From a virus (taxonomy: Duplodnaviria; Caudoviricetes): 24,664 nucleotides of DNA. Below, in pieces: positions 4,611 through 24,351 of this stretch (its first letter is position 1; each line of letters starts with the position of its first letter). The notes under the pieces were generated by a model. It ran no database searches and was not told where the DNA came from. It was given only the letters and a program-made list of their open reading frames with translations. The stretch is from positions 1-24,664 of IMG/VR virus record IMGVR_UViG_3300023095_000011, one strand, 5' to 3'. The position numbers and the translations under genes were made by a program.

Positions 4611-4662
4611 AGTAAATCTCCGCTATTAAAGCCGAAGTGAGCCTGTTGAGTAAAGTATATCA
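4611..4662 (-). promoter_or_regulatory. Extended -10 promoter plus conserved leader motif (site A)
   Basis: mRNA strand: TGATATACT-ttactc-aacAGGCTC-actt-CGGCtttaatagcGGAGatttactTTG. Confidence 0.7.
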
Positions 4663-5331
4663 TTAGTTAGCCGTTTCTTGCAGTAGGTAGTAGACAACGT
4701 TAAATGCACTAGAAGTAAACCCAAATGCACCTGTTAACATTACACTGCTTCTAAAATAAATATTTGTACTGTCTATAGCTACGCCTACATTTGTCCACGC
4801 TACACTCTTACCCCCACCACCCGTTGACAACGCATAGCTATAAGGTAGTGAATTATTAGTCCCTACATCTCCCAAGAAGGCAAGTATGGCAGGCGTATAA
4901 CTTAAACCGTGTGCCACTGTAGTCGTTGTCTCACCACTAGTAAAGTTAGTTGCGCCTGGGCTTCCAACGACAAAACTACTTATTGTAGCTGTGCCCTTGC
5001 TAACTATTTTAAATGTATTCTGCGAACTGTTAAATATAAGCTGATCCGCTGTGGCTGTATTAACATCGAATCCAGCCTTTGAAACTTTAAGCCCGTAGAA
5101 ATCTACACCAGCACTAACGCCGTTCTGTTGGTACCCCATCAATACCCTTGTCTGAGTAGCATCTCTTACTAATGCGGTTCCTGACCGTAGGTCAACACCA
5201 TACCCTGTTGTCTGCCACTGTGAAACCCTGCCATCATCTTGTGGGCGCAGAGACTCATTAAGCGGTGTTACGGTCGAACTTGCTGGTTCGTTCGTATACT
5301 TTACTTCATCGTTTGCGGGTACATCAGCCAT
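4663..5331 (-). CDS. Tail tip/fibre-associated structural protein
   Basis: 222 aa, beta-rich. Contains YGLKVSKAGFDVNTATADQLIFNS and VAHGLSYTP motifs typical of phage tail proteins; TAATG-coupled to the upstream gene. Confidence 0.55.
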   Translation of the reverse strand: MADVPANDEVKYTNEPASSTVTPLNESLRPQDDGRVSQWQTTGYGVDLRSGTALVRDATQTRVLMGYQQNGVSAGVDFYGLKVSKAGFDVNTATADQLIFNSSQNTFKIVSKGTATISSFVVGSPGATNFTSGETTTTVAHGLSYTPAILAFLGDVGTNNSLPYSYALSTGGGGKSVAWTNVGVAIDSTNIYFRSSVMLTGAFGFTSSAFNVVYYLLQETAN

Positions 5332-7223
5332 TAGTCAGCCTCCGATTTAAGTGATTCCCATATGACTGTTGCACCGATAATCTCAGGAGTGGTTGTGGTC
5401 GCGACAACATCTATAGCTATCTGGAGTTCTTTATACCGCTTATTAATAGGTAAAAGGGCAAAGGTACTTCCTGCCACTGCGGTTGTACCTGATACGTAAC
5501 TTCCTCTATCTATCTTGTACTTTGGAGTAACCGTCGCCCCCGTTGGAAGGGTTTTAAAGTCTATACGTAGAGAGACAGCCATTTTAGTCTTGTCAGGACG
5601 ACCGTTATCTATGAGTAGGCTTTCCCACGTTGCATTTGAGAATGGCGGCGAATTAGGGTCAACCTTATCTACTCCGTACCTCTGTCCAACTATCTGGGAG
5701 TCATCCCGCCAACTTATGAACAACTTATCCCCAAAGCTTTTGATCATCCCTATACGAAGGTTATTCGAGCCTGTGTTTAAACGGCTTCCTGTAGACATAG
5801 AATAAGAAAACCCGAAAGACGGTTCGTAGTTCTTATTTCGTTTGCCGTAAGAGTAGACACCATGTTCAATGTTCGTACTATTTGTCTCAGATGGGAAAGC
5901 ACCTAATAACACGCTATTACGAACGGCAATAGAATATGGGTAGTTCACCATATAAGTATTTGAGTTCGTAAACTCGAAATCCGTATTAGGCATTTGGAAA
6001 ATAGGCACGGGGTTTCCACCGCTCCAAGCCCACCACTTACCATTCGCAAAGTAGTACACGATATTACCTTGTGAAAATGCTCCGTACGGTGACCCTTCGG
6101 GGACATCTATGATTCTGTTATATGAAACCGATGTGCCATCCCATATGAATAGTTTACCTTCTTGGTATTCATTTGTGGCGCTCGTAGAGCGCTTCTCGCA
6201 GGCGATAACTACATATTCGTCCCAACGGGCAAATGAGGTGACTGAGTAGCCTGGAGGGAACGTAAGACGGTGACGAACCCACTCTACATTCGATGGACTA
6301 GACTGTGATATCGGCTCCCATGCTGTGACGTATCGCTCATTACCGATCAGATAATACTGGAGAAACTCAATTATAGGGTGGAATCCATTCGTAGGAAGGA
6401 TGAGACGATTAACATATTCCTCAAACCGTGCGCCACTCAAATCGTTTGGATTAGCGGTACCTATTGTTGAAGCAGTACCGTTTGAATGGGTTATATGAAA
6501 ATGATATGTACCTGCATTAGGCTTCACAAGCATACGAACGGGTGAAAATGTGAATTGATTAAGGGAACCGCTGGAGATGCTTGCGTTTGGCAGAGTTGAC
6601 GTGCCGAGGATGTTATTGGCCGCATCATGCATCGTGACGGTCAAATCACCTGTTCCCTTAGTTGTTACCCATATACTTATACTAACCAGTGGTTCAATAG
6701 TCGGCGTAATGTTGAGTTTATTGGTCATGTATTCGTCAATAGAGCTTTGTGTCGTATAGGTATTAGGGGAGCCTGTAGCCGATTGATCAATCTGTGAGCC
6801 AAAAACATCAGCCATTACCCCCATCGTACCGCCGAATCTTCCATCAGCATTCGTTATAGCATGGAATGTCGTATTTCCCGCTACGTATACCGTATCGTGC
6901 TGGTTGTTATACACCATGCCGAATGTGGTACTAGGTAGGCTTGAACCAAATTTAGACCACGTACCGCCCGCTGTCCGAGTATATATTCCCCCGCTTGCAT
7001 CTATTGCGACATACTTTCCTGACGGGAGCTGTATCATATTCGTCACAAGATCGGTCACAATCATGCCAGTTTCTTTTACAGTGCTTGGAAGAATCGTTAA
7101 CAGACGCGGGTCTTTACGGAAGTCCATGTGGCGTGAATAGGAAAAGCTATCTTTAACGCCTTCTTTCAGACCACCCGTGCTCCAACCATTCACGAATCTT
7201 TCAAATACTAATGCATTCTTCAT
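5331..7223 (-). CDS. Podovirus tail nozzle/hub-like protein (P22 gp10/T7 gp12-like, probable beta-propeller)
   Basis: 630 aa, rich in beta strands and aromatics (LFIWDG, WWAWSGG); directly follows the adaptor gene. Confidence 0.6.
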   Translation of the reverse strand: MKNALVFERFVNGWSTGGLKEGVKDSFSYSRHMDFRKDPRLLTILPSTVKETGMIVTDLVTNMIQLPSGKYVAIDASGGIYTRTAGGTWSKFGSSLPSTTFGMVYNNQHDTVYVAGNTTFHAITNADGRFGGTMGVMADVFGSQIDQSATGSPNTYTTQSSIDEYMTNKLNITPTIEPLVSISIWVTTKGTGDLTVTMHDAANNILGTSTLPNASISSGSLNQFTFSPVRMLVKPNAGTYHFHITHSNGTASTIGTANPNDLSGARFEEYVNRLILPTNGFHPIIEFLQYYLIGNERYVTAWEPISQSSPSNVEWVRHRLTFPPGYSVTSFARWDEYVVIACEKRSTSATNEYQEGKLFIWDGTSVSYNRIIDVPEGSPYGAFSQGNIVYYFANGKWWAWSGGNPVPIFQMPNTDFEFTNSNTYMVNYPYSIAVRNSVLLGAFPSETNSTNIEHGVYSYGKRNKNYEPSFGFSYSMSTGSRLNTGSNNLRIGMIKSFGDKLFISWRDDSQIVGQRYGVDKVDPNSPPFSNATWESLLIDNGRPDKTKMAVSLRIDFKTLPTGATVTPKYKIDRGSYVSGTTAVAGSTFALLPINKRYKELQIAIDVVATTTTPEIIGATVIWESLKSEAD

Positions 7224-8104
7224 GGTATCTGTAAGTCTCTTCTATAATGGGTATACCCGCTACTGAGACGAGGGCTCCTAAAGTAGTTAGACGTGGTCTT
7301 TGAATTGTAGTTTGCCTTACAATCTAACAAAGATTCGTCAAAGCTTGCCTTCATATCTTTAGCAGCGCCAACATCCCGACGGCGACGGTAGTATCGAAAT
7401 AGAGCGTAATCAATGAGAGACTCGTGGTATTCTTCTGGGATATCTGGCACTTCACCTATCAGGTACGTTTTTGTACCTCCTGATGTCCCGCCGTATGTAT
7501 TCTCAAGTGTTATGTGTGTCGAGTCGGTGAATGAAGCAATTTTGTACCCCATACCATCTGCTGAACCATCCGTTACAAATAGTACACGACCAACCATACT
7601 TGTTGTCCACGTTGTCCCCGTACCCACTACGGCAGACGATCCTGCAGTCATAGTGACAGTCCCTGTAATGTAATCATCCTGCGTCATGTCACGCATCGAG
7701 TGTTCATAGGTGAGAGTGCCCGTGTTAACCCCTGATGGTGTCGGCCATATACCGAACTGGTCATTGCCTTCAACAAAGAAGTATTCAGGTACGCTTGATG
7801 TCTGTGTTCGCATAGTTACTGCTTGCCACATTTGTTCATCGACGATTTCCTCAAGCGGATACGCAACTGAGCCTACATTGACTGTGATAGTTTTCACTCG
7901 GATACAGTCTTCAGGTGTCTGATAATAGGTCTGTGAAGCAACAGTTAAGAATGTCTGCTTACGATTTCGCCAATCCCGTCTTAATAGAGCACCGAATTTT
8001 CGCATACCCTGATTGACCGCCCTCTTTAATAAAACAGTCGTTGCGGCGGAATCGTCTTCTGCCTGTGCTTGTGCCTCTGAGATAATCTGAGCAAAAGTAA
8101 TCAT
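7220..8104 (-). CDS. Head-to-tail adaptor protein with an inserted beta-sandwich domain
   Basis: 294 aa. Helical N-terminus (ITFAQIISEAQ), YQTPEDC, IWPTP and C-terminal PDIPEEYHESLIDYALFRYY are typical of podovirus adaptors. Confidence 0.7.
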   Translation of the reverse strand: MITFAQIISEAQAQAEDDSAATTVLLKRAVNQGMRKFGALLRRDWRNRKQTFLTVASQTYYQTPEDCIRVKTITVNVGSVAYPLEEIVDEQMWQAVTMRTQTSSVPEYFFVEGNDQFGIWPTPSGVNTGTLTYEHSMRDMTQDDYITGTVTMTAGSSAVVGTGTTWTTSMVGRVLFVTDGSADGMGYKIASFTDSTHITLENTYGGTSGGTKTYLIGEVPDIPEEYHESLIDYALFRYYRRRRDVGAAKDMKASFDESLLDCKANYNSKTTSNYFRSPRLSSGYTHYRRDLQIP

Positions 8105-8841
8105 TATATAGCCAGTACGAGTATGTAGCCTCTCGCTACGGTGTTACGAACATCTACAGTACCTGCACTTGTACCCAGAGTTAGACAGACATCACGGCTT
8201 CCTGCTGCAGGAGCCGCTAGATAACCTATAAGAGAGTGAGTGTAGGCTGATCCTGAAGTTACGGTATCACTAGCAATAGTTATAGCTGTTGCACCAGTAG
8301 TTGCACCATCACGGATAACAAATGTCTCACCGCCTGTACTGGTCTGCTGGATGACATTAATCTGTGCATAGATCATTACATCTCTACCGCCCGCAGGAAC
8401 GGTATAGTTGAGGGATGTACCCGAAGAAAGGTTAAGAAGTGTAGTGGCTGTTATACCTGTCTGGTCGCTAGCTGAGGTCTGCTTATAACCAAGTCTGATA
8501 GCGCTCGTAGAAAGAAGGGGGGCGGTGATTGCATTATTAGGGAATGCCGTAGCGCTTAGTTGACCGCCATTGGCTGTGTCTGCGTGTGTATGGTTCGCAT
8601 TGGTAAAGCTACTAACTGTAGGAGTTGCTGTCCATGCAGATGTTCCCACGCCGTTCCCTTGTAATATAAGACCAGCTGTTGGGGTTGATGCGCCAGTTCC
8701 TAATTTGGTAGCGAGGGCTGGTATCTGGATTTCAAAGTCATTTAAAAGACCAGTTAAACCTATGCCGCCTGCTGTTCCATTAGGCGTGTCTGCACCTGCA
8801 GTGACTGAGTATGATGGTATGCCAGTTGGGAAATTAGCCAT
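8104..8841 (-). CDS. Tail fibre/spike-like structural protein
   Basis: 245 aa, Thr/Gly/Ala-rich. MANFPT start, HTH-type fibre motif (ANHTHAD) and a C-terminal beta-sandwich. Confidence 0.6.
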   Translation of the reverse strand: MANFPTGIPSYSVTAGADTPNGTAGGIGLTGLLNDFEIQIPALATKLGTGASTPTAGLILQGNGVGTSAWTATPTVSSFTNANHTHADTANGGQLSATAFPNNAITAPLLSTSAIRLGYKQTSASDQTGITATTLLNLSSGTSLNYTVPAGGRDVMIYAQINVIQQTSTGGETFVIRDGATTGATAITIASDTVTSGSAYTHSLIGYLAAPAAGSRDVCLTLGTSAGTVDVRNTVARGYILVLAI

Positions 8842-9023
8842 TAGCTTACACTCACATATGTTGTCGGTTGTTTATTAGATAGCTGGTTAGGAACGATTGG
8901 GGTGAAGTACCCATTCATATAAGCGACCGTGCTGTTTAGGGTTATAAGAGTGCTGTTGAGCGTCCACTTACTTGCTAACGCATCTGCGGTTGAGCTGATA
9001 TATGTAGTTGTTGGTTTTGCCAT
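8841..9023 (-). CDS. Small hypothetical virion protein
   Basis: 60 aa, SD GGAG, TAATG-coupled to the next gene. Similar ends (KPTTTY / KQPTTY). Confidence 0.6.
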   Translation of the reverse strand: MAKPTTTYISSTADALASKWTLNSTLITLNSTVAYMNGYFTPIVPNQLSNKQPTTYVSVS

Positions 9024-9091
9024 AAAGTCTCCATTAAAGAGCCGTATGAGCCTGTTGTCTATATAATAAGGTAATTAGTTCGTTAGGGCAA
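9024..9091 (-). promoter_or_regulatory. Sigma70-like promoter plus conserved leader motif (site B)
   Basis: TTGCCC (9091-9086), 17 nt, TATTAT (9068-9063), then atagac-aacAGGCTC-ata-CGGCtctttaatGGAGactttATG. Confidence 0.7.
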
Positions 9092-9203
9092 TGTAGATGA
9101 TGTACGCCGTACAAATTATCGTTGTAAAGAACATGCCTATGATCCCTCTATACATCCATTTGTGAACAATGTAGATTTGTTCATTTTCGGGTAGTTTTTT
9201 CAC
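9075..9203 (-). CDS. Small single-pass membrane protein, 42 aa (not in the ORF track)
   Basis: GTG overlaps the upstream TGA (GTGA). Translation: MKKLPENEQIYIVHKWMYRGIIGMFFTTIICTAYIIYIALTN*. Confidence 0.6.
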   Translation of the reverse strand: MKKLPENEQIYIVHKWMYRGIIGMFFTTIICTAYIIYIALTN

Positions 9204-9739
9204 GCCGCCTTACCTACCAGAGTGACAGTTATGGTTGAACCTGAGGCGGCGCTAAATGCTACGGAGCCGAGTATGTTTGTGCTGAGTAGGGTTATACCAG
9301 TAAAAATCTGCTTATTGAATGGAATGGTGACGGACTTCTTATTGCCTGCTACTACTGCAGCTGCACGAGCATAGTTGGCACTTGAGTCAATCGTCTCAGT
9401 TCCTACACCTTCTACGTATATGTCTGAGCAGATAGCTGTGCCTGCCGAAGTGTGGTCGCTGGTTAGGTAGATAACCGCGTTTCCGCCTGAAGTGGTCACG
9501 GTGTCCATCCACACTACGATATCGCCTGTGTTCGGTGTACCGTTTAGGGGAGTTCCATTCTGGTAATAGCGAACAGAAGTTTTCGTATTGGCTACAGCGA
9601 GTACAGCTTGGTCACCGAGATATACCTGAGCCTCAGAAGGTATCTGGTCAGGACTGTTAGTCATAGGCATTGAGTTGGTAACCATGTCGGTCGTGAGAGC
9701 GTTCGATGGTTGGTTTGATGGGTTTACTGATACTGTCAT
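9200..9739 (-). CDS. Hypothetical beta-rich structural protein
   Basis: 179 aa, Thr/Ser/Val-rich, TAATG-coupled within the fibre cluster. Confidence 0.6.
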   Translation of the reverse strand: MTVSVNPSNQPSNALTTDMVTNSMPMTNSPDQIPSEAQVYLGDQAVLAVANTKTSVRYYQNGTPLNGTPNTGDIVVWMDTVTTSGGNAVIYLTSDHTSAGTAICSDIYVEGVGTETIDSSANYARAAAVVAGNKKSVTIPFNKQIFTGITLLSTNILGSVAFSAASGSTITVTLVGKAA

Positions 9740-10269
9740 TATAAGCTCACTATTCTTCCAGCAAAGTAATTATTAGCTGTACCCGTAGTTATTGCACCGC
9801 CAAGTCCTTGCAGATAGACTTCTACATAATCCGTTGCGGATAACTGTAGTACATCATTTACTCCAATAGTAGTAGTGACGTTACCTGCAGTAAAGTACTG
9901 GAAACCACTCGTTACAATAGACCCGTTTTTGTATAAAGCTATCCTGAAACTACCCGCACCGCCTGTCACGTATGTAATCCATGAATCGAACTGATAGAAT
10001 CCTGCTACTGGAGCAGTAAATCGTCCGACGTTCGTTGTAACATCGAAGTTGTTGCCTGTATCATAATTCTCTGTATCAAAGTTTACGATTGCAAGAGTTG
10101 CGTTACCACAGTTCTGCGCGCCATTTCTATATGCACGAAACTTATAAGGAATGTGCTGGTTAACGACTGTAGGAGATGCTGCTGTACCACCAAGATCACC
10201 AGCAAGCTGAACTTTACCTTTAGTAATAGTGGTTGCATCGGCAGTAGGAGCATTTTGATTTAATGCCAT
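9739..10269 (-). CDS. Short fibre/receptor-binding protein with a C1q/TNF-like head domain
   Basis: N-terminal fibre repeat DATTITKGKVQLAGDLGG. C1q-type motifs FRAY, VNFDTENYD..NNFD..GRFTAPVAGFYQF, LYKNG, LQLSATDYVEV and YFAG. Confidence 0.75.
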   Translation of the reverse strand: MALNQNAPTADATTITKGKVQLAGDLGGTAASPTVVNQHIPYKFRAYRNGAQNCGNATLAIVNFDTENYDTGNNFDVTTNVGRFTAPVAGFYQFDSWITYVTGGAGSFRIALYKNGSIVTSGFQYFTAGNVTTTIGVNDVLQLSATDYVEVYLQGLGGAITTGTANNYFAGRIVSL

Positions 10270-11948
10270 TACAGGGTAGTCTCCGTCACATAAGCAAACC
10301 CGTTAGCCGAGTTCCAAATAATGTCTATTCTTCCTGCGTAGTCTTCACCATTCAACGAGAAACTTCCGAGGCTTTGCAAGAAGATGCTGAATGATGTCGT
10401 GGAAGCAGTTGTGCCGAATTTAACGTACGCATCAGAAGTCGAGGCGTTATAACAGGTCATAAGTCTTCGGGATGGGTTCGCCGCTAAAAGGGTCGTAGAA
10501 GTCGCTGAACTTGTAACTGTAGTTAGAGCTGCAGTATTTGCTGGGGAATTACGCGTAAATGTTGTTCCAGTACCGTCCGTAGCGAAAGGAGAATAATCAC
10601 CATTCGCACTTGTGAGAGTTGTAGCTGCATTATCATTACGCACTCCCCACACTGCAACGCCAGTATCACCTGAGGTATGTGCTGCATCCTCAGCTTTACC
10701 TAAGTTAGTAGCAGCAACTCCAGGCGTTAAACTTGTTGTCCCTGTCAGAGTGGTGACCGTACCTACTGTAGTGACGGTCGCAAGAGTTTGTGCAGCCGCA
10801 ATATTAACGGCACCAATAGTAGCAGAACCAGCTACTAGTGAAGGCAAACGGGTAACATCGACATCCAGCCCATTCGTAATGTCACCACGCATTCTATCCC
10901 ACGTAGTACCGTTGTATAGTGCAGAGAAAGCCCAGTTCTGGGTCATGTCAGTTTCGTTGGTATAAGCATCTGACGGTCGTTGTGACGATGGGTTTGGGGC
11001 AACTATGTGATAAACAGTCTGAATACGTAAAGAGGTCGTAAGTGTTGCACCATTCGTATAGACGATTCGGAAGTAACGAGCGGTAGGTTGAACTGAGAAC
11101 ACTTTGCCCGAAGTCGCAGGAATTGTATATGTGTCGATGAAATCCCAGTTTGTGTTGTCCGACGATTGCTGTAGCGATAGTCCATCGGTCGCAGACGCAT
11201 GTGAACTATACACAGATACTTGAATAGCTGAATAATTTAATACATCTTCGCCTGTACCAGTGAAAACACCCGCTGCGGAGAGGTTTGCGCTCGTTGAGTT
11301 AGCGGTTGATAAGACCCCATTTGTCTTCAACACAACAAATTGGTTACCTGCAGTATCGCCTGCAATACTCTGAATATTCGTCCCATCGTCTACCATTGCG
11401 AGTGTACCTGTGGCAGTGCCCCTGACAGCTCCATCGGCATACTGTGTACCGCTTGAACCACCAGATGCAATCGTTACCTTTAGGTTACCGTTCACATCAA
11501 GTTGAGGTGCGTAAAGTTGACCGTCAGTAAGTGTGGGGGCAGAAGACTTATAGCGCCCAAGAGCTACCGTGCCTGTCGCTGGAGCAGTAGTCGTCAACTC
11601 TGCGTATTGTGTACCTGCAGCACCACCTGTAGAGGCGACTCTAAGCGCACCTGTAGAATCAAGCTGTAGTCCATACATCTGTCCATCAGTAAGGGTCGGT
11701 GAAGATGATTTATAACGTCCGAGCGCTAGAGTGCCTGTGCCAGGAGCTGTGGTGTCGAGTTCTACATACTGACTACCCGCAGAACCGCCCCCTGTAATAA
11801 CAGCACTCACCAGTAGACGGTGAGTTGTGGGATCAGCACCAATAACAACAGGCGTGCGACCTGCAGTGTTTATTGTATTTATATCTGTACCGAGAAGAGT
11901 TGTTACTCGGTTTTCATCTCGTGGTGAAATTGCATCTGGTAAAGCCAT
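10269..11948 (-). CDS. Fibre/appendage protein with internal repeats
   Basis: 559 aa, very Thr/Gly/Ala-rich. Repeats of about 54 aa, a jelly-roll-like segment (LQQSSDNTNW...ARYFRIVYTNG) and YNGTTWDRMRG. Confidence 0.65.
   Translation of the reverse strand: MALPDAISPRDENRVTTLLGTDINTINTAGRTPVVIGADPTTHRLLVSAVITGGGSAGSQYVELDTTAPGTGTLALGRYKSSSPTLTDGQMYGLQLDSTGALRVASTGGAAGTQYAELTTTAPATGTVALGRYKSSAPTLTDGQLYAPQLDVNGNLKVTIASGGSSGTQYADGAVRGTATGTLAMVDDGTNIQSIAGDTAGNQFVVLKTNGVLSTANSTSANLSAAGVFTGTGEDVLNYSAIQVSVYSSHASATDGLSLQQSSDNTNWDFIDTYTIPATSGKVFSVQPTARYFRIVYTNGATLTTSLRIQTVYHIVAPNPSSQRPSDAYTNETDMTQNWAFSALYNGTTWDRMRGDITNGLDVDVTRLPSLVAGSATIGAVNIAAAQTLATVTTVGTVTTLTGTTSLTPGVAATNLGKAEDAAHTSGDTGVAVWGVRNDNAATTLTSANGDYSPFATDGTGTTFTRNSPANTAALTTVTSSATSTTLLAANPSRRLMTCYNASTSDAYVKFGTTASTTSFSIFLQSLGSFSLNGEDYAGRIDIIWNSANGFAYVTETTL
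11334..11789 (-). repeat. Three tandem protein repeats of about 54-55 aa (third degenerate)
   Basis: GG.AG(S/T)QY.EL.TTAP.TGT.ALGRYKSS.PTLTDGQ.Y..QLD..G.L.V occurs twice, then GGSSGTQYADG...ATGTLAM. QY falls at aa 60, 114 and 169. Confidence 0.8.
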
Positions 11949-11990
11949 TTAAAATCCTGTTTAAAGGCCGTGTGAGCTAATCGAATTATA
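11949..11990 (-). promoter_or_regulatory. -10 box plus conserved leader motif (site C)
   Basis: TATAAT (11990-11985), tcgatt, AGCTC-aca-CGGC, then ctttaaacAGGAttttaaATG. Confidence 0.65.
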
Positions 11991-12753
11991 ACTTATGGGA
12001 CTGTTTAATACTAGCGAGGTCGTTCAGTGCAATCTCTCTACCATCCAGCTGTAACTTACGATCATGGAGTTTCATTTCTCTTGTTGTAAGTTCTTTTTCT
12101 TTGCCATCTAAGTCAGCTACCCTATCCTGTGCCTGTTCAACTAATAACTTGGCTGCATTTTCTTTATCTTCTGCGCCCTTGAGAAGCCTATTAGCTTCGT
12201 CTCTATCCTTATCGATCAGCACTTCTTTTTCGGCTATAGCCTTTTCACGTGCTTCTAGATCAGAGACCTTTTCTTTAATCTCGTTCTCAGACTGCGATAC
12301 GGAACTCTCCCTAGTGGTTAGGAACTGAGACTGCTTATCTAACATCTTGGTCTTTTCACGGAGATTATCTTCATCTTCCGCTAGTTTAATATCACGGCTA
12401 TCGAGTGATTCTTTGCGTGCGTCCAGCTCACGAGTTTTCTCTGTAACATAATCTTGGTGCTCAGCGGTCTTCTGGGTAAGTACATCCATCTTCTTATCGA
12501 TAGTTTTTTCTGCCTCTGCAAGACGAGCTTCCTCAGCATGCTTCTCATTGCTAAAAGCTTCACTACGTGTCTTTATCTCACGTTTGATACTTTCTAAGCG
12601 TTCTTGGTTAGTGACAACCTGTCTATTACCTGTCTGTACCTCTTCGGTGATATTAGCGTGTATAGCTTTAAGTCCTGGTAGTTCTCTGGTCAGCTTAGAG
12701 TGCATCTCTTGAAGCTTTGCCACTTCATCGTGTAGCTTGTCCCATTCAGACAT
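11986..12753 (-). CDS. Long coiled-coil protein of unknown function
   Basis: 255 aa, almost entirely charged heptads (L..RE..L pattern). Confidence 0.75.
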   Translation of the reverse strand: MSEWDKLHDEVAKLQEMHSKLTRELPGLKAIHANITEEVQTGNRQVVTNQERLESIKREIKTRSEAFSNEKHAEEARLAEAEKTIDKKMDVLTQKTAEHQDYVTEKTRELDARKESLDSRDIKLAEDEDNLREKTKMLDKQSQFLTTRESSVSQSENEIKEKVSDLEAREKAIAEKEVLIDKDRDEANRLLKGAEDKENAAKLLVEQAQDRVADLDGKEKELTTREMKLHDRKLQLDGREIALNDLASIKQSHKL

Positions 12754-13262
12754 TAGTTCTGCTCTATTATAGTATCGGTTGTACCGAGTGAGGCTGCGGC
12801 AATATCGCTAACAGCGTTCTTCGATTTGTCATTTAGTTCGGGGAATTCAACGTCCTCAACTGTTGGTTCAATAACAGCGTCTTCTACAGATTCATCAGTG
12901 GTCACACCTAGATCAATTTCTCCTACAGGACCACGAGTAGCATGCAACGTACTAGCTTCTTTGACACGCAAGACAACTTCAGCTTCGTACTTGGCGCGGA
13001 CATCTGCGTCCCAGATACGGAGTACGTCTGACTTACTACTTTGAATCATTTCGTCAATGATTGCTTTCACACCGAGAGTAGCCACCGCTCCACCAGGTAA
13101 TTCGCTTACCTTGTGAGCAGGAAGCTTGTATTGATAAGGCGTATTCGTTTCATCTGCTACCTGAAAGATGACATCATGATCAAATGGATTCTGAATCCAT
13201 ACTGTTGCTTGTGGATGGAATTGTCGGTAGTTAGATTTTGTACCGTCGGTTGTTGTGGCCAT
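12753..13262 (-). CDS. Hypothetical phage protein with acidic C-terminus
   Basis: 169 aa, strong SD AAGGAG, TAATG-coupled to the next gene. Confidence 0.75.
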   Translation of the reverse strand: MATTTDGTKSNYRQFHPQATVWIQNPFDHDVIFQVADETNTPYQYKLPAHKVSELPGGAVATLGVKAIIDEMIQSSKSDVLRIWDADVRAKYEAEVVLRVKEASTLHATRGPVGEIDLGVTTDESVEDAVIEPTVEDVEFPELNDKSKNAVSDIAAASLGTTDTIIEQN

Positions 13263-13298
13263 TAGAGCTCCTTAAATGTTTATGCCTATAGTTTACCA
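13254..13298 (-). promoter_or_regulatory. Extended -10 promoter and leader with the motif overlapping SD and start (site F)
   Basis: TGGTAAACTataggcATAAACAtttAAGGAGCTC-taA-TGGCcaca; near-copy of 16701-16743. Confidence 0.65.
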
Positions 13299-13304
13299 CA
13301 CATG

Positions 13305-13327
13305 AAAAGACGCCCTTTCGAGCGCCT
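13305..13327 (-). terminator. Intrinsic terminator
   Basis: AGGCGCUC-GAAA-GGGCGUCU stem with GNRA tetraloop followed by a short U run, downstream of the 96-aa ORF. Confidence 0.75.
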
Positions 13328-13355
13328 ATTCTGGTTCACAGCCGACTTAAGTATA

Positions 13356-13646
13356 TTACTTAGTTGCGGTGTTTGAAAAGCCACCAGCACCAGTCTTACC
13401 TGTGCTGTTGTTCTGTTGGTGAGCGCTCTTCTCAGACTTGGTATCTTCCTTAACGGTTGATTCTTTAGTCTCATCTTTAGCAGGCTTAACATCCTCTTGC
13501 TTGTCTTGGTCTACATCCTGTGCAAGACGGTCTGTTAGCTGTGCGAATGCATCTTCTGCCTTTGTAACAGCTGCACGAAGTTCTGTGATAGCTTCCTGAG
13601 CTGCACCAGTAAATGCGTTGATGTGGGTTGTTTGTACTTCTGCCAT
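13356..13646 (-). CDS. Hypothetical protein (helical N-terminus, charged disordered tail)
   Basis: 96 aa with strong SD AAGGAG. Confidence 0.7.
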   Translation of the reverse strand: MAEVQTTHINAFTGAAQEAITELRAAVTKAEDAFAQLTDRLAQDVDQDKQEDVKPAKDETKESTVKEDTKSEKSAHQQNNSTGKTGAGGFSNTATK

Positions 13647-13665
13647 ATAATTCTCCTTTTAGTTA

Positions 13666-13703
13666 AAATGGTATCCGTTGGGCTTAACCTCAGGATACCA
13701 TTT
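13666..13703 (-). other. 11-bp perfect inverted repeat (leader hairpin or possible terminator)
   Basis: AAATGGTATCC-16 nt-GGATACCATTT, ending about 8 nt before the SD of the 96-aa gene. Confidence 0.7.
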
Positions 13704-13734
13704 ATGTTGATCTCGTACTGTTCGTATTCTTACA

Positions 13735-13974
13735 CTAAGCTGCGGTTGTGACGTTCGTCCACACGGTAGAACCTGTGGTGTTCACGTACAAACGGGTTGA
13801 TGTGCTTGATCCGTCAGTCCTGAGGTAGATAGAGCCTTGAGGTGCGCTCATAGTTGGTACACCTGAACCAAAGGTAATCTTTGGTGATGCACCAGTCCCA
13901 ACACTTGTGAAGGTAGCGCCACCCGCTGTGATAGGGGTGTTGATTGCTACTTCGTAATCTCGTAAGTCTGACAT
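13735..13974 (-). CDS. Small capsid-associated/fibre-like protein
   Basis: 79 aa, SD TAAGGAG. GSGVPT.SAPQGSIYLRTDG...LYVN..G...W is a motif common in phage fibre and decoration modules. Confidence 0.65.
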   Translation of the reverse strand: MSDLRDYEVAINTPITAGGATFTSVGTGASPKITFGSGVPTMSAPQGSIYLRTDGSSTSTRLYVNTTGSTVWTNVTTAA

Positions 13975-13983
13975 TGTATCTCC

Positions 13984-14727
13984 TTACGCAATGTTTAGGT
14001 TAACAAAGCCGTACTTGGTTGTGACACCAGGTACTGCATAGACCGTACCGATACGAGTAGTGACGGTTGTTGCAGCTTCGACAGCGACTGCACCAGCAGT
14101 TGTCCCCTGGATGACACCAGAACCAACCGCAGGAGTACCGTCGATAAGGACGTTCGTAACACCCTTAACTTGGAACCAACCATAGTTAGCAGCCGTGACA
14201 GCGATATCAGGGACACCAGTGAAGACATCAGTAACTGCAGTACCAGAGGCATCTGAGATTATGATGTTTGTCATCGGGTGAACCGCAAGGCTGACTTTAG
14301 AGTTACCAGCTACGATGGCTGTAGTGATCGGGTCGTAAAGGTTAATGACCACGTTACCAGTAGTTGAAGCCTGTGCAGAGTGTCCTTTGATAAGGATGTT
14401 CTGACCAGCGCCAGCGCCGTCGAATACCTGTAAGTAGCCGCCAGCGTACTGGTTAGCAGTTACAGCCGTACCAGCTAGGGTAACGGTGATTGACATTGAA
14501 CCGACAGCTACGTTTGACGCGGTAGGTACAACTAGGTTCTGATGGTTAGCAACACCAAGCGGAGCCTGTGTGAGCTTACCAATAGCCAAAGTTGACGCAC
14601 CAGCCAAGCCGTAACGGTAGACACGTCCGTCGATTGTGTTTGCTTCGACACCTAATGCACCCTGTTGGGTTGCGCTTAGTGTGTTTAGTTCCTGTTCTAC
14701 TACAACAGGTCGCATAGTAAGTCCCAT
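13984..14727 (-). CDS. Capsid decoration/cement-like protein
   Basis: 247 aa directly after the MCP. LG....DGRVYRY and YGWFQVKG motifs; Gly/Ala/Thr/Val-rich. Confidence 0.6.
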   Translation of the reverse strand: MGLTMRPVVVEQELNTLSATQQGALGVEANTIDGRVYRYGLAGASTLAIGKLTQAPLGVANHQNLVVPTASNVAVGSMSITVTLAGTAVTANQYAGGYLQVFDGAGAGQNILIKGHSAQASTTGNVVINLYDPITTAIVAGNSKVSLAVHPMTNIIISDASGTAVTDVFTGVPDIAVTAANYGWFQVKGVTNVLIDGTPAVGSGVIQGTTAGAVAVEAATTVTTRIGTVYAVPGVTTKYGFVNLNIA

Positions 14728-14729
14728 GA

Positions 14730-15800
14730 TTAAACTCCTGTGATTCCAGTTAACGCACCATGACGGCGGGTTGAACCAGAGATTAAGTTACCAAGCATGA
14801 TGAACTGACCAATCTGTGCGTACTGGTTGAACGGTTTATCGAAGCCACTCCACTGGATAGGGTAGTTCTGTTGGTACTCAGAGTAAACTGAGTCAATGTT
14901 CTTACCGTTCATCTTGTAGCTTGTAAGACCGACACCTTTAAGGTTGTACCAGTTCAAGTAATCTTCATTAATGAAGTACATTGTTCCAGATGGACACTTT
15001 TCATCAGCAACGATTGGAATACCTCTCCAACAGAGTGCCTCAAAACCGAAGTGACCCTTGAGGGATTCTTGATCTTTGAATGTGACACCAGGCTTAGAGT
15101 AGGTTGTGATGTTGACACGTGATAACGCGTCGTAACCAGCATTGATAGTTGGGGTGAACAAACTCTCAAGCAAGTCCCAGACTGTTTCAGTCGTAAGGAT
15201 GATGCTTGGGCGTTGGCGACGTGAGCCAGCAGCGCTAGAACCACGCATAACTGTAGCCATGTTAGCGAAGGTCAATAGACCACCCTGAGCAGCTAAGATA
15301 GTCGAGTTAAGTTGTGGGTAGGTAGTACGAGTAAGACCAGCGTAAGTGCTTGTCTGTGTACCGTCATCGATGATTGCACCAAGACCTAAGAAGTCATCAC
15401 CTGAACCAGTACCGTAAATCTGGCTACCGATTGAATCAAGCATAGCGTTCTGTGCTTCTTCCATCGTAACTTTCATTAAGTCGAGAACTTCACCGTCAGT
15501 CTTGTTCAAGCTAGCTTCACCACCAGAAACTGATACGTTCTGGTAGAACTGAGCATGACTGAAAGTCTGACGAATACGAGTATCTTGCAATGCTGTATCG
15601 AAGTTACCAACACCAGCGAATGAACCGCCAGTTGTAGGCTTTGCTATTTGTAGTGGAACTTGCATCTGACGACCAGACCAAGTTTTCATCTCACGCATGA
15701 ACAAGCGAGAGAGAAACACGTTGGAGTTTAGAACTCCGTCAATCACGGTAGGAACATATGATTCCTCTGTGATTGAGATAACACGGTTTGATAATGCCAT
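14730..15800 (-). CDS. Major capsid protein (HK97 fold)
   Basis: 356 aa following the scaffold. Features include LDLMKVTMEEAQNAM, IYGTG..DFLGLGAII, YAGLTR, PSIILTT and GIPIVADEKCP..TMYFIN. Confidence 0.85.
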   Translation of the reverse strand: MALSNRVISITEESYVPTVIDGVLNSNVFLSRLFMREMKTWSGRQMQVPLQIAKPTTGGSFAGVGNFDTALQDTRIRQTFSHAQFYQNVSVSGGEASLNKTDGEVLDLMKVTMEEAQNAMLDSIGSQIYGTGSGDDFLGLGAIIDDGTQTSTYAGLTRTTYPQLNSTILAAQGGLLTFANMATVMRGSSAAGSRRQRPSIILTTETVWDLLESLFTPTINAGYDALSRVNITTYSKPGVTFKDQESLKGHFGFEALCWRGIPIVADEKCPSGTMYFINEDYLNWYNLKGVGLTSYKMNGKNIDSVYSEYQQNYPIQWSGFDKPFNQYAQIGQFIMLGNLISGSTRRHGALTGITGV

Positions 15801-15822
15801 TATCTATCCTTTTATTTAGTTA

Positions 15823-15856
15823 AATTAAAAACCCGCCGACACTATGGCCGACGGGC
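15823..15856 (-). terminator. Terminator-like hairpin in the 5' leader of the major capsid gene
   Basis: GCCCGUCGGC-CAUAGU-GUCGGCGGGU (10 bp including 3 G-U pairs, so it forms only on the mRNA strand), followed by UUUUAAUUU. Confidence 0.7.
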
Positions 15857-15867
15857 TACTTAACGTA

Positions 15868-15896
15868 AACATAGCATATCAGGGCTAAAAAATCAA
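15868..15896 (-). promoter_or_regulatory. Sigma70-like promoter for the major capsid gene
   Basis: TTGATT (15896-15891), 17 nt, TATGTT (15873-15868), with the TGn extension. Confidence 0.6.
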
Positions 15897-16709
15897 CTAC
15901 AGACGGCTCTTAGCAAGGTCATGTACCTGATCAAGCGAAAGGCCAGGAGGAAGCGCAACTTTCTGGTCTGATTTACCACTTGTTGATGTGCCTCCACCTT
16001 GTACGCTACCGCCACGAGCATTCTTGCGGTTATTAAGCTCTTTCTCTTTCTCAATCTCGTATTTGTCGTACTGGACAGCCTTATAAGCAGTCTCAAAGTT
16101 ATTCACTACAATGCCCTGTTGAAGCTTGCGCTCCATGTAGCTGTAGACTTCTTCAATCTCTTTATCTTCTTTAATGCCGAGAGACTTGATGTCCTTATCC
16201 CATTCTTTTTGCAGGGCATCGGTACGTTTCTTGGTTTCACGCTGTTCTTCGGTCTTCACACGCTCTTCTTCAGCCTTGAAGTCTGAATCCTCTTTGCGCA
16301 TCAGCTCTTTAGTACCGCGCATCAGTTCCTTATAAGATACTGGTTCAAAGCCATCAGGTACTTCATCGAGGTTATTGAAGTAAAACTTCTTACCGTCTAT
16401 GCTCTTAATCTCTACCTTGCCCTTGCCAGGCTTGTTGATGTCTTCGTCTACTTCGTCACTTGCAGGGGTGTCGTCTTCTTGAACGTCATCATCTTTGGAC
16501 TCTTCCTCATCTGCCGAATCATCTTCGTCGGACTGCTCGGAATCGTCGTCTTTTCCTTCTTCAGAATCTCCGTCATCATCTGATTTGTCGTCTTGCTCTT
16601 CTTTTGTGTCATCTTCACCCTCGCTATCTAATTTGCGCTGTTCTTCTTCGGTGATCTGATCTAGGGTCAGACCTTCTTTGATTTCTTTATCGTCTTCTGA
16701 TGTGGCCAT
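15897..16709 (-). CDS. Capsid scaffolding protein
   Basis: 270 aa with a very acidic N-terminus and helical core, located between portal and MCP. Confidence 0.75.
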   Translation of the reverse strand: MATSEDDKEIKEGLTLDQITEEEQRKLDSEGEDDTKEEQDDKSDDDGDSEEGKDDDSEQSDEDDSADEEESKDDDVQEDDTPASDEVDEDINKPGKGKVEIKSIDGKKFYFNNLDEVPDGFEPVSYKELMRGTKELMRKEDSDFKAEEERVKTEEQRETKKRTDALQKEWDKDIKSLGIKEDKEIEEVYSYMERKLQQGIVVNNFETAYKAVQYDKYEIEKEKELNNRKNARGGSVQGGGTSTSGKSDQKVALPPGLSLDQVHDLAKSRL

Positions 16710-16743
16710 GTGAGCTCCTTATGTTTATACGACTAGTTTACCA
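16701..16743 (-). promoter_or_regulatory. Extended -10 promoter (inside the last portal codons) and leader with the motif overlapping SD and start (site E)
   Basis: TGGTAAACTagtcgtATAAACAtAAGGAGCTC-acA-TGGCcaca. Confidence 0.65.
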
Positions 16744-18808
16744 TACCACCCTGTGGTAATTGCGGAGCTTGCTCAACCATCTGTCCTGCGAGTGCGCTTG
16801 GGTCAGTTGGAGCGCCGCCACCGCCCATCATCTGTTGTTCAAGTGCAGCCTGTTGTAAGTCCTGCTGTTGCTTAGCCATCATATCCTCTTGGGTTGGTGC
16901 TTGTGACATCAGCGCCTGTAATTGTTTCTGAGCTTGGGCTTGGCACTTCCTCAACCATTCGATAGTCGCCTGTTTAACATCAGGTTTCTGCTCATCAAAG
17001 TCAGGAGAAACCATATACTGGTTAAAGTACTTGAGGTATTCATCACCAATGTCGTTGCGTTCTTCAGGCTCTTTGCCGCTATTAAGTATCTGTATATCCA
17101 TAAATGCGTAACGGTCGAACTCATCGTCCTTTTGTGCGCCCATAAACTTCTGCGGGTCAGTAGACCAGAGCATGTAGCGTTCAAGGAGCTTCTTAGGGCT
17201 TGGTAAGTTACCACCTGTCACAACTTCATAGAGAGATAATGGGTCGATCATCTTCATAGATGCAAGGCTATCTGCAGCTTTCAACTGTGATTGCTTATTA
17301 ACAGGCATGGTCGAACCAGCTTCTACGGCTATATCAATACCATCCTCAATCATGTCAGACTTCATTACTACCTGATCAAACTGTCCATCTTCACCAACAG
17401 CTTTAAACCAATGGTCTTCTGTGTAGTAGACCTTCATCATCTGGACAAGGTAGCGGTAATACAGGGTCGCTGCACGCTCAACAGCGCGGGCTATGTCATC
17501 CATGCGTGTGTAGTCTTGACTTTGTTGGATTTGATCTTGCCCTAATGTCTTATTAGCAGATCGTTCGCCACGTGAGATATCGTGAGTGGCAAATATGTTA
17601 TCTATCTCATTACGAGCGTCATTCTTGTCTTCTATGACGTAATTAGGGAGTGGTGGTGGGGCGACACGGGTCACAGCTGAACGCACATCCCCATTCACGC
17701 CGATACGCTCGTCAGGGGCTCCTGTAAGCTTTGCTATGTCCTCTTTCTTAATCATGACGGTGTTGAAGATTAAACCTGAGCCAGCCATCTCAGCGTTCTC
17801 CATGATCTGGAAGCCACGACGATCGAGGATTCTCTGCAACGGTGCAGCCTGTTCAACCATTGAGGTAAGGTCTACATAACTTGTACCATCATTCAGGTAG
17901 TTCAACGGGATAAATGGTGGTGCTGGGTAATCGAGGATGTTAGATGTCGCCTTGCTTGATTCTTCTTTGTAGTTCCAATTCGGGTTCTTGTCCTTACTCA
18001 GAACGTATTGGAAGTTCTCATCCACGACAGCAAGCCCGCCACGATATTGTTTCATGTCCTTATCAAAGTAGCGGAACCAGACTTCTAGCAGGTTCTTTTT
18101 CTTACCAAGTTGTGTCTTATATGCGACACGATCACCCTTGCTATTTGTGCGGGCCACGCCAATCAAGTCATAGACCTTATCCTTAGCATCAGGGAACATA
18201 GCCAGCATTTCCTCGCCTGTCTTATTCTCTAAACGCTGGACATAAACTCGTGGGACATCATTCCACTTAGCGTCCATATCAACCACGATATCCTCAGGTA
18301 ATACGTGTTCTGGAACGATCTCACCATGCTCGCCCATGTTCGGATCCCAGCGAAGCTTAATATAGCCAGCTCGCTTGAGCAGTAAGTTACGAGTCGCGAT
18401 ACGGAAGATGTCCTGTACTCGGAACTTCTTAGAGTGAGCGAATAGTGCGGTCTGCAGGTCTTTGGCTATCTGCTGTGAAGTAATCGTATCTTGAGCAGGC
18501 ATAACCTCAGGCTGTGGGATACGGGCATTAACAATAGAACAGATGGTCTCCACTGATGTGAATATACGCGGGTCTTGGTATAAATATTCTTCTTGGTAAT
18601 CATAAACATCTTTGTTCTTCCAGTGGTTAGGAAGCCACAGGTTCATATTTGATTCACGTATTTCTTTGAGCTTATAGGTGCCGTTCCAGTATGCTTCTGA
18701 ATCCTGTACAGGACGACGTATTAAAGCGAGGAGATCGTCGTCCTCCATTGGCAGGTCGAACACGGTTGTATCTACTGTTTGCTGGTTCTGAATATCTGAT
18801 GCGTCCAC
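16733..18808 (-). CDS. Portal protein (podovirus/P22-like)
   Basis: 691 aa, GTG start with AGGAG. HDISRGE..NKTLG and DIAVEAGSTMP motifs, Gln-rich C-terminal tail; follows the terminase. Confidence 0.85.
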   Translation of the reverse strand: MDASDIQNQQTVDTTVFDLPMEDDDLLALIRRPVQDSEAYWNGTYKLKEIRESNMNLWLPNHWKNKDVYDYQEEYLYQDPRIFTSVETICSIVNARIPQPEVMPAQDTITSQQIAKDLQTALFAHSKKFRVQDIFRIATRNLLLKRAGYIKLRWDPNMGEHGEIVPEHVLPEDIVVDMDAKWNDVPRVYVQRLENKTGEEMLAMFPDAKDKVYDLIGVARTNSKGDRVAYKTQLGKKKNLLEVWFRYFDKDMKQYRGGLAVVDENFQYVLSKDKNPNWNYKEESSKATSNILDYPAPPFIPLNYLNDGTSYVDLTSMVEQAAPLQRILDRRGFQIMENAEMAGSGLIFNTVMIKKEDIAKLTGAPDERIGVNGDVRSAVTRVAPPPLPNYVIEDKNDARNEIDNIFATHDISRGERSANKTLGQDQIQQSQDYTRMDDIARAVERAATLYYRYLVQMMKVYYTEDHWFKAVGEDGQFDQVVMKSDMIEDGIDIAVEAGSTMPVNKQSQLKAADSLASMKMIDPLSLYEVVTGGNLPSPKKLLERYMLWSTDPQKFMGAQKDDEFDRYAFMDIQILNSGKEPEERNDIGDEYLKYFNQYMVSPDFDEQKPDVKQATIEWLRKCQAQAQKQLQALMSQAPTQEDMMAKQQQDLQQAALEQQMMGGGGAPTDPSALAGQMVEQAPQLPQGGMVN

Positions 18809-18856
18809 GAATAACTCCTAGTTATGCCGTGTTGAGCCTTTGAAATGAGTATATCA
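18809..18856 (-). promoter_or_regulatory. Extended -10 promoter, conserved motif and SD hairpin (site D)
   Basis: TGATATACT-catttc-aaAGGCTC-aaca-CGGC-ATAACT AGG AGTTAT-tcGTG. Confidence 0.75.
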
Positions 18857-18884
18857 CACTCCAACTCACACACTACCCCTGTAA

Positions 18885-19160
18885 TTATTTAGCGTTTATG
18901 AGCAAGCGATAGTTGGATTTGCACAATTTACAGCGTACATTCACCGCTATATCGAAGTCCGTAGTCGGCATTGGAGTAGAGATAATCTTATCTATCTGCC
19001 CCTTTACGTCATAGATAGTTCTCTTACAGAATAAGCAACTGAGCTTCTCCATTTCGGACTGTGTGCCACCCATCATGTAGATGCTGATTGGCGGGCTGTT
19101 TGTGTGATCTTTATATGGTTTTTCACCATTACTAAAACTGAATGAATCGTTCATGTACAT
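18885..19160 (-). CDS. Zinc-ribbon protein, Mu Com-like (putative translational regulator)
   Basis: KLSCLFCKRTIY...VNVRCKLCKSNYRL matches the Com pattern (C-x2-C-x-K/R-hydrophobic...I/V-x-I/V-R-C-x2-C-K) with a longer loop; TAATG-coupled to terL. Confidence 0.6.
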   Translation of the reverse strand: MYMNDSFSFSNGEKPYKDHTNSPPISIYMMGGTQSEMEKLSCLFCKRTIYDVKGQIDKIISTPMPTTDFDIAVNVRCKLCKSNYRLLINAK

Positions 19161-22293: not shown

Positions 22294-22457
22294 TTGTCTG
22301 CCTTCTTATTGAGTTCACGTTGTATAACTTCGAGTATGTAGAGTTTGTCATACATTTCAGCATAATTATCAGAGTCCCCAGCTCCTGATACTGTTTGAAT
22401 ATGCACTTTTATTGCACCAATCATCTCTTCTAAGGTGAGTCCTTCAGGTACTATCAT
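22290..22457 (-). CDS. 55-aa hypothetical protein (not in the ORF track)
   Basis: MIVPEGLTLEEMIGAIKVHIQTVSGAGDSDNYAEMYDKLYILEVIQRELNKKADK*; ATGA overlaps at both ends. Confidence 0.65.
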   Translation of the reverse strand: MIVPEGLTLEEMIGAIKVHIQTVSGAGDSDNYAEMYDKLYILEVIQRELNKKADK

Positions 22458-24076: not shown

Positions 24077-24351
24077 TACTTATCCTCCACTAACATGATA
24101 CGGCTTGCTTGGAATATAGCTTGGCCTTTATCTTTAATCTCTTGAGGGGTGTCTGCCTCCGCATGTTTCTGTACATATACGATGTCTCCTATTTTAACAT
24201 CGGGCGTAATTAGCTTGCCAAATTCATAATGCCCCTCACCTACAGCCAATACCTCGTACTTCTGCATCGTGTCTTCTATGTTAGACGTGGTAACTACAGC
24301 GCTCTCTTTTTTTATTTCCTTACCCAAGACGTAACTAGCATATGGCCTCAT
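24076..24351 (-). CDS. groES: Phage-encoded co-chaperonin GroES (divergent)
   Basis: MRP....V...EVLAVGEG....G..I.PDVKIGDIV; TAATG-coupled to groEL. Confidence 0.9.
   Translation of the reverse strand: MRPYASYVLGKEIKKESAVVTTSNIEDTMQKYEVLAVGEGHYEFGKLITPDVKIGDIVYVQKHAEADTPQEIKDKGQAIFQASRIMLVEDK

Follow-up and report, generated by a model that had tools for sequence, protein, structure and literature searches.

The locus considered here raises the question of how a phage might turn on several separately transcribed virion operons together, and whether one small zinc-ribbon protein that recognizes a short RNA hairpin in their leaders could be sufficient for this. The stretch of DNA analysed, referred to as the window at its full length of 24,664 nucleotides (nt), is the IMG/VR virus record IMGVR_UViG_3300023095_000011, a 24.7-kb phage fragment with 45% GC, in which groES/groEL and the genes for the terminase, the portal, the capsid and an SU10-type adaptor all lie on the minus strand. 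An earlier reading of its letters, the original prediction, had proposed that a motif of the form RGCTC-N3/4-YGGC stands at the head of every virion module and is bound as RNA by a protein similar to Com of phage Mu. As judged from sequence comparison, the motif is with high confidence a cis-acting RNA switch that is repeated in the late leaders.

Motif copies in the late leaders

All six motif strings of the original prediction are present on the minus strand at the positions claimed. The pattern GCTCN3-4YGGC has nine matches in the window compared to 2.09 expected, three of the nine on the plus strand within genes. For a core pattern, defined after seeing the data, five of six minus-strand matches fall in intergenic DNA, i.e., in 2.6% of the window. 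Every copy was said to lie downstream of a -10 box; four of the six are intergenic, lie 7–11 nt behind the hexamer and upstream of the Shine-Dalgarno sequence (SD), and precede the portal, 559-amino-acid (aa), 60-aa and 234-aa genes (sites 1, 3, 4 and 5 below). The scaffold and 169-aa copies lie ~20 nt from the -10 box and contain SD and ATG. Moreover, a fifth true site had been overlooked, GCCCGTCGGC at 15856-15847, before the major capsid gene. The promoters and sites are the following:

18848..18856, minus strand: extended -10 box of the predicted portal promoter, read from sequence, at the same position in relatives
18826..18837, minus strand: mini-hairpin site 1, portal leader, with its 3' half predicted to pair across the GTG start
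15868..15896, minus strand: predicted major-capsid promoter upstream of the terminator (-35 at 15896-15891; extended -10 at 15876-15868)
15847..15856, minus strand: mini-hairpin site 2, capsid leader, which is the 5' arm of the terminator (25/25 close relatives)
15822..15857, minus strand: intrinsic-terminator-like hairpin with U tract, capsid leader (11 pairs; -17.9 kcal/mol, z -4.3)
11967..11990, minus strand: -10 box (11990-11985) and mini-hairpin site 3 (11977-11967), before the 559-aa gene
9041..9091, minus strand: sigma70-like promoter (9091-9063) and mini-hairpin site 4 (9051-9041), before the 60-aa gene and adaptor operon
4631..4662, minus strand: extended -10 box (4662-4654) and mini-hairpin site 5 (4642-4631), before the 234-aa gene

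The claim that every virion module is served goes too far, as the terminase and groES/EL leaders carry no copy and the scaffold and 169-aa promoters are not followed by a 5' copy. Furthermore, no family matches lie behind the labels "fibres" and "ejection" given to two of the modules. In all counts across relatives the window is represented by three loci identical to it (L001, L002 and L023).

The element as an RNA mini-hairpin

The motif had been described as non-palindromic, which is wrong for RNA, where it forms a 3-bp stem-loop. In close relatives the stems are GCU/GGC, GCC/GGC, GUC/GAC or ACC/GGU with a loop of 4–6 nt whose first base is C or U, giving the site consensus RYY-Y-N1/4-(C/A)-GRY. 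The motif recurs in several late leaders of the relatives, as its proposed conservation implied, and sequence comparison places it 7–13 nt behind the -10 boxes; L016, L018 and L021 have an upstream chance match besides their real sites. For the pairing analysis 43 sites were aligned by sequence alone, with three pairs each resulting in 129 cells, and 128 of these (99.2%) are paired, a figure to be read as support rather than as a probability because the sequences are related. The outer pair is G-C in 40 and A-U in two sites, the middle pair C-G in 40 and U-A in three, and the inner pair C-G in 23 and U-G in 20. None of 500 column shuffles equalled the observed pairing, and structures slid along the alignment reached 12–56%. 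The U-G pairs together with the variable loop length argue against a DNA palindrome, and the compensatory changes and U-G pairs point to an RNA-level element, in support of the RNA-level action suggested originally. The mini-hairpin alone is barely stable (-2.2 to +0.1 kcal/mol). In Rfam, neither the window (E up to 5) nor ten related loci (at gathering scores) had a match.

Predicted competition with terminators and ribosome binding sites

Motif and terminator occur together in 25/25 close capsid leaders, and a terminator also lies over the motif in eight tail-region leaders of relatives. Due to this overlap at the capsid gene and in the relatives' tail leaders, the system would also work by antitermination. 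A loose -35/-10 arrangement is found upstream of 47 of the 52 capsid-leader-type terminators.

Competition of the motif with helices that hide the ribosome site, as in com/mom, is predicted in most leaders that have no terminator, although not at window site 5. With the motif held unpaired, the ribosome site opens at a cost that is lower by 4.7 kcal/mol on average, compared to 2.3 kcal/mol for shuffled motifs (29/34 leaders; the 34 rows filed as having no U tract include two misfiled capsid terminators), and for leaders with U tracts the corresponding gain is -0.6 (27 rows). In a swap test, which omits all capsid leaders, each leader's own motif was set against 19 other natural motifs; it occludes better than their mean in 33/34 leaders and ranks among the top three in 19. 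Before both tests 8/69 loose motif matches, non-structural or duplicate, were removed by hand, and the extent of L043 was corrected. As an example of co-variation between the partners, a GUCCUUC variant of the motif is accompanied by a matching GGAGGAC ribosome site.

In the window the gains in opening cost are 5.2 kcal/mol for the portal, 4.8 for the 559-aa, 5.1 for the 60-aa and 0.3 for the 234-aa gene, and helices hiding the SD or start codon are predicted by modelling in three window leaders. The portal leader folds at -10.5 kcal/mol (z -2.7), and a flawless motif is present in 18 of 22 close portal leaders. At site 4 the loop is predicted to pair with the AUG; its leader has a z of -2.95 and its motif ranks 2/20 in the swap test. 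Site 3 is of a type present in ten leaders of 559-aa-type genes, and the fold of the window leader is no better than that of its shuffles (z -0.85). Site 5 is described from the window leader alone.

A simple explanation would do without a trans-acting factor, the hairpins tuning expression in cis as leaky terminators or by protecting 5' ends. A terminator of -17.9 kcal/mol before the capsid gene, combined with a competing stem that is conserved and yet too weak to form on its own, is hard to reconcile with such an arrangement without a ligand, and we regard it as highly improbable.

The 91-aa zinc-ribbon protein

The C4 zinc-ribbon open reading frame (ORF) of the original prediction is found directly upstream of the portal promoter:

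18885..19160, minus strand: gene for a 91-aa C4 zinc ribbon (CxxC-31-CxxC), candidate RNA-binding activator; its start overlaps the terL stop

A C4 ORF between terL and portal is family-wide, with the four cysteines invariant in 32 diverse members. The AlphaFold2 (AF2) model of the 91-aa protein is all-beta with a pLDDT (predicted local distance difference test) score of 82.8. A profile of the 32 members aligned with Mu Com at 94.5% (E 8e-8) over all four cysteines, i.e., both knuckles, and at 93.6% with a Pfam-Com protein that occupies the same gene slot in L123. The controls comprised three proteins only and scored 1.2% for P2 Ogr (hhalign) and 0.2–0.6% for two other cysteine-rich phage ORFs. 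The proposed resemblance to Mu Com is therefore seen by the wide family profile and not by the Pfam cut-off: among the five top families given for each protein, none of 30 family members showed a match passing Zn_ribbon_Com (22.9 bits; best shown 15.4), which Mu Com (36.8 bits) and the L123 protein (27.9) do. Judged by sequence, the 91-aa protein is a remote Com relative outside PF10122. Structure-based searches with the AF2 model added little: the best PDB Foldseek match has an E of 1.4, the best match of the wide VIA search a Z of 2.9, and the best match in the viral fold library, to an uncharacterised phage protein, an E of 0.005. The ESM Atlas contributed a weak Com row only (TM 0.37 by query), and a sequence search of the PDB gave a best E of 0.016.

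Small C4 zinc proteins are also found in another role. P2 Ogr and P4 Delta are late activators of this kind that act at several late promoters read by host polymerase, and Ogr binds DNA at a site upstream of the -35 box. Like them, the protein described here is small, has a C4 zinc ribbon and is proposed to activate several late genes, and the motif could be a DNA site or an element of the initially transcribed region, with the zinc ribbon as an Ogr-like activator of transcription. The fixed distance between motif and -10 box would fit, as would a conserved purine-rich block (ACAGGGGTAG, window 18882-18873) which, together with a GTTNG block, precedes the portal -10 box in the majority of close relatives and is possibly a second, DNA-level site. 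However, both blocks are absent at the other four window promoters, and no shared element was seen upstream of the five. Unlike the Ogr site, the conserved element here is transcribed; U-G pairs in 20/43 sites, loops of 4–6 nt and compensatory changes are not expected of a DNA site, the motif pairs with terminators and ribosome sites, and the profile similarity to Ogr is negligible. A DNA site is thus very unlikely.

Possible link between the protein and the RNA

For co-occurrence the comparison covered the 68 loci in which terL, portal and capsid leader are all visible, using a strict terminator caller that fires on 2/110 shuffles. Of 55 phages with the zinc-ribbon gene, 52 have a terminator in the capsid leader, compared to none of the 13 that lack the gene; this represents a single phylogenetic contrast. 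The zinc-ribbon gene is inverted and lies on the opposite strand between terL and portal in L109 and L092; in L109, whose capsid leader is in view, hairpin and terminator are kept. The gene is retained even ~4 kb away from the portal gene. The 91-aa zinc ribbon is likely the protein that binds the hairpin.

Alternatively, the switch might be real and its binder another phage protein, encoded outside the fragment or a self-regulating virion protein, with the zinc ribbon merely travelling with the packaging module. The window covers only part of the genome (a 42-kb contig carries the same 91-aa protein), the co-occurrence amounts to one contrast, and phages without the gene also have terminators in portal leaders. 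Against this stand the persistence of the gene when inverted or distant from the portal, its relation to a proven hairpin-binding activator, and the fact that it is the only small gene found conserved across three leader classes, the early regions of the relatives not being part of that survey. We consider another phage binder unlikely.

A host factor, e.g., a Nus-type, an S1-type or another RNA-binding protein, could also recognize the hairpin, in line with the host-type promoters and with a boxA-like string after site 4. Nevertheless, the motif changes from one phage clade to the next on the tree. A partner encoded by the phage would permit this, and a host factor is distinctly unlikely. The boxA reading of the string itself was rejected, as the string is not conserved.

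Proposed mechanism and points against it

Taken together, a joint model appears reasonably likely on comparative grounds, in which the zinc ribbon binds the repeated leader hairpin and turns five late transcripts on together. The terminase operon, which lacks a site, would produce the zinc ribbon and thereby set the timing. By default the late leaders would be off, either by termination or by a hidden SD or start codon. Reading from transcription starts that we infer, the protein would catch the nascent hairpin during transcription, before its downstream partner emerges. With the hairpin held, the capsid operon would be read through (antitermination), and in the portal and tail leaders the ribosome sites would be free (translational activation), so that one binding event would have either consequence depending on the leader.

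Several observations weigh against this model. On the RNA side, double-sided changes are limited to two pairs and 5 cells, and the counts from the 43 related sites are not independent. Occlusion is not predicted at site 5, the motif of site 3 comes no higher than 12/20 in the swap test, and the single window sites compared to their own shuffles give p values of 0.06–0.68, none clearly better. The capsid terminator (-17.9 kcal/mol) is far stabler than the mini-hairpin, and the switch must therefore be kinetic. On the protein side, the 91-aa protein has no Com match in Pfam, PHROG or NCBIfam, a narrow 22-member profile reaches only 12% with Mu Com, and the window sites do not contain the CC-N2/3-GAG motif of the Com target (PMC6483171). 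On the terminase tree (61 of the 68 loci) gene presence changes once, leaving one independent pair, so that the co-occurrence is one contrast and no test of coupling. Finally, a terminator-like hairpin precedes the portal gene in 8/13 phages that lack the zinc-ribbon gene, which means that such leaders need not depend on this zinc ribbon. Seven of these eight carry a different small gene in the slot, and an alternative reading can be that the slot between terL and portal is filled by interchangeable regulators.

A wider reading is tentative and in our estimate somewhat more likely to be wrong than right. In it, the late programme of a large group of Patescibacteria phages would be run by a single Com-superfamily zinc ribbon, which recognizes a hairpin of 10–12 nt at the 5' end of every late transcript and does the work of a late sigma factor, a DNA-binding activator or a processive antiterminator. 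The capsid operon would be antiterminated, the portal and tail ribosome sites freed, and the scaffold gene repressed via its start-codon copy. Hairpin codes would be clade-specific, and true Com or DUF2292-like proteins would occupy the slot in sister groups.

Leaders and slot genes in other clades

Clade 1 was assigned by identity and clade 3 by hand (15 loci), with clade 2 as the remainder. The second clade consists of distant phages that share the gene order. Here the capsid-leader hairpin is preceded at its front by a 3-bp hairpin with a GA(A)G anchor in 24/25 leaders (including a match on the wrong anchor in L075, in whose leader the proper site is visible) compared to 4.1/25 expected by shuffling. 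Nine stem types occur, and the 3' arm usually opens the terminator. The third group mostly has AGGA-N-CC at the same place, as read by eye.

Outside these patterns, L054, a distant phage, has a longer, double zinc-ribbon-like ORF, and its portal and capsid leaders share a 4-bp hairpin with a UCUA loop and a compensatory change. L123 has a true Pfam-Com gene at 7892-8077 after terL and a portal leader with GAG-N-CC-like repeats and a terminator. A ~70-aa DUF2292-like gene lies in the zinc-ribbon slot of seven phages (L125, L129, L130, L134, L139, L140 and L157; 1/7 passes Pfam), all of which have a terminator-like hairpin before the portal gene; as far as sequence goes, this is a candidate parallel system. 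Leaderless-looking portal genes, which start a few bases after the -10 box, are seen in L006, L022, L053, L088-L091, L093, L096 and others, and several of these phages have no SD before the capsid gene either.

Comparison with known regulatory systems

Com binds a short hairpin adjoining a translation-inhibiting structure in mom, with the target loop motif CC-N2/3-GAG named above (PMC6483171). The system described here resembles Mu Com/mom (PF10122) in its small C4 ribbon, with four cysteines aligned by profile, and in a short hairpin with a loop starting with C near a structure hiding the start codon, which is predicted here (PMC6483171). In contrast to Com, the window protein carries an additional strand at its N-terminus, its knuckles are ~14 residues further apart, and it does not reach the Pfam threshold. 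Moreover, five separate virion leaders, terminators among them, take the place of one overlapping mom gene, and the gene following the zinc ribbon is portal rather than mom or a methyltransferase.

For the ANTAR proteins EutV, NasR and AmiR, mini-hairpins with short stems exclude a terminator and occur several per locus (PMC3369931), and actinobacterial ANTAR hairpins overlap the ribosome site or start codon (PMC8164766). Similarly, the mini-hairpin and the leader terminator exclude each other in the 25/25 close capsid leaders and the 24/25 of clade 2. Unlike the two ANTAR hexaloop hairpins with A1/G4, a single hairpin is found here, with a 4–6 nt loop led by C or U, and the helical dimeric ANTAR domain differs from the all-beta zinc-ribbon model; Pfam ANTAR has no match among the 29 window proteins. 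BglG/SacY likewise act on one protein-stabilised stem-loop that overlaps a leader terminator (PMC12591593, PMC3369931), an arrangement shared here, where stabilisation by the protein would have to be assumed. However, their ribonucleic antiterminator (RAT) spans 29–30 nt and their CAT domain is under control of the phosphotransferase system (PTS), whereas the motif here has 10–12 nt and Pfam gives no CAT or PRD match among the window proteins. The system would thus work in the manner of Com and of ANTAR/BglG; by the tests that define these systems, it is a member of neither.

Com has been characterised on one target only, mom, and a 2018 review stated that a wider regulatory role of Com is still to be explored (PMC6240691). 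A literature search, with most subscription papers outside it, gave no description of a Com-like late regulon or of the motif; ~10,000 candidate phage RNAs are reported in PMC10690425, the supplements of which could include these leaders and were outside the search. If the model is true, Com-like proteins would be regulon-scale switches of phage late genes via antitermination and translational activation, and late genes could be timed in a way that differs from sigma cascades, from activators of the Ogr type and from Q-type antitermination. The model also offers an explanation, open to testing, of how genes are timed in phages of the Patescibacteria, a largely uncultured group, and many natural candidate pairs with differing stems, each consisting of a 91-aa protein and a 12-nt RNA.

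Phage genes and likely host

The structural and packaging genes referred to above are the following:

16733..18808, minus strand: portal (phrog_156, PF16510)
14730..15800, minus strand: major capsid protein (phrog_9953)
19160..20821, minus strand: terminase large subunit (phrog_675), in the motif-free operon

The best annotated match of the phage is the TM7 phage DolZOral124_53_65 (capsid 38%, portal 32%). Many relatives of the terminase in GTDB assemblies lie in Patescibacteria bins, with others labelled differently. Based on these two sets of sequence matches, ultra-small bacteria of the Patescibacteria are the likely host. A capsid-alignment scan of GTDB found no relative, and the zinc-ribbon family profile had no match in a sample of 401 genomes of the phylum to which a Saccharibacteria genome belongs (positive control G002), a sample that leaves room for its presence there. 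Phage-encoded groES and groEL at 22454-24351, upstream of the terminase, are kept in many relatives.

Start-codon copies and minor features

The two copies over start codons are the following:

16705..16715, minus strand: scaffold copy over SD and ATG (full motif 4/23; GCYY 7/23 vs 8/224)
13258..13268, minus strand: 169-aa-gene copy over SD and ATG (1/14, window only; leader like the scaffold leader)

Both copies start with a GAG that serves as the SD, their "YGGC" consists of the ATG and the first codon, and both lack the C/A preceding GG that 43/43 aligned sites have. The full motif spans the start codon in four of the 23 scaffold orthologues and, for the 169-aa gene, in one of 14 orthologues, the window itself. 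The latter copy is probably a chance SD-ATG artefact rather than a site. The scaffold copy is not dismissed in the same way because GCYY stands right before the start in 7 of the 23 scaffold genes compared to 8 of 224 other starts, and it is possibly a repressive site. The scaffold (16743-16700) and 169-aa (13298-13253) leaders have the same -10-like box and ~70% identity over ~50 nt, which makes them the top direct repeat; this suggests a duplicated promoter-leader cassette or a second promoter class. Finally, a TATACT box at 13355-13300 lies ~25 nt ahead of the terminator closing the capsid operon and could yield an RNA of ~50 nt.

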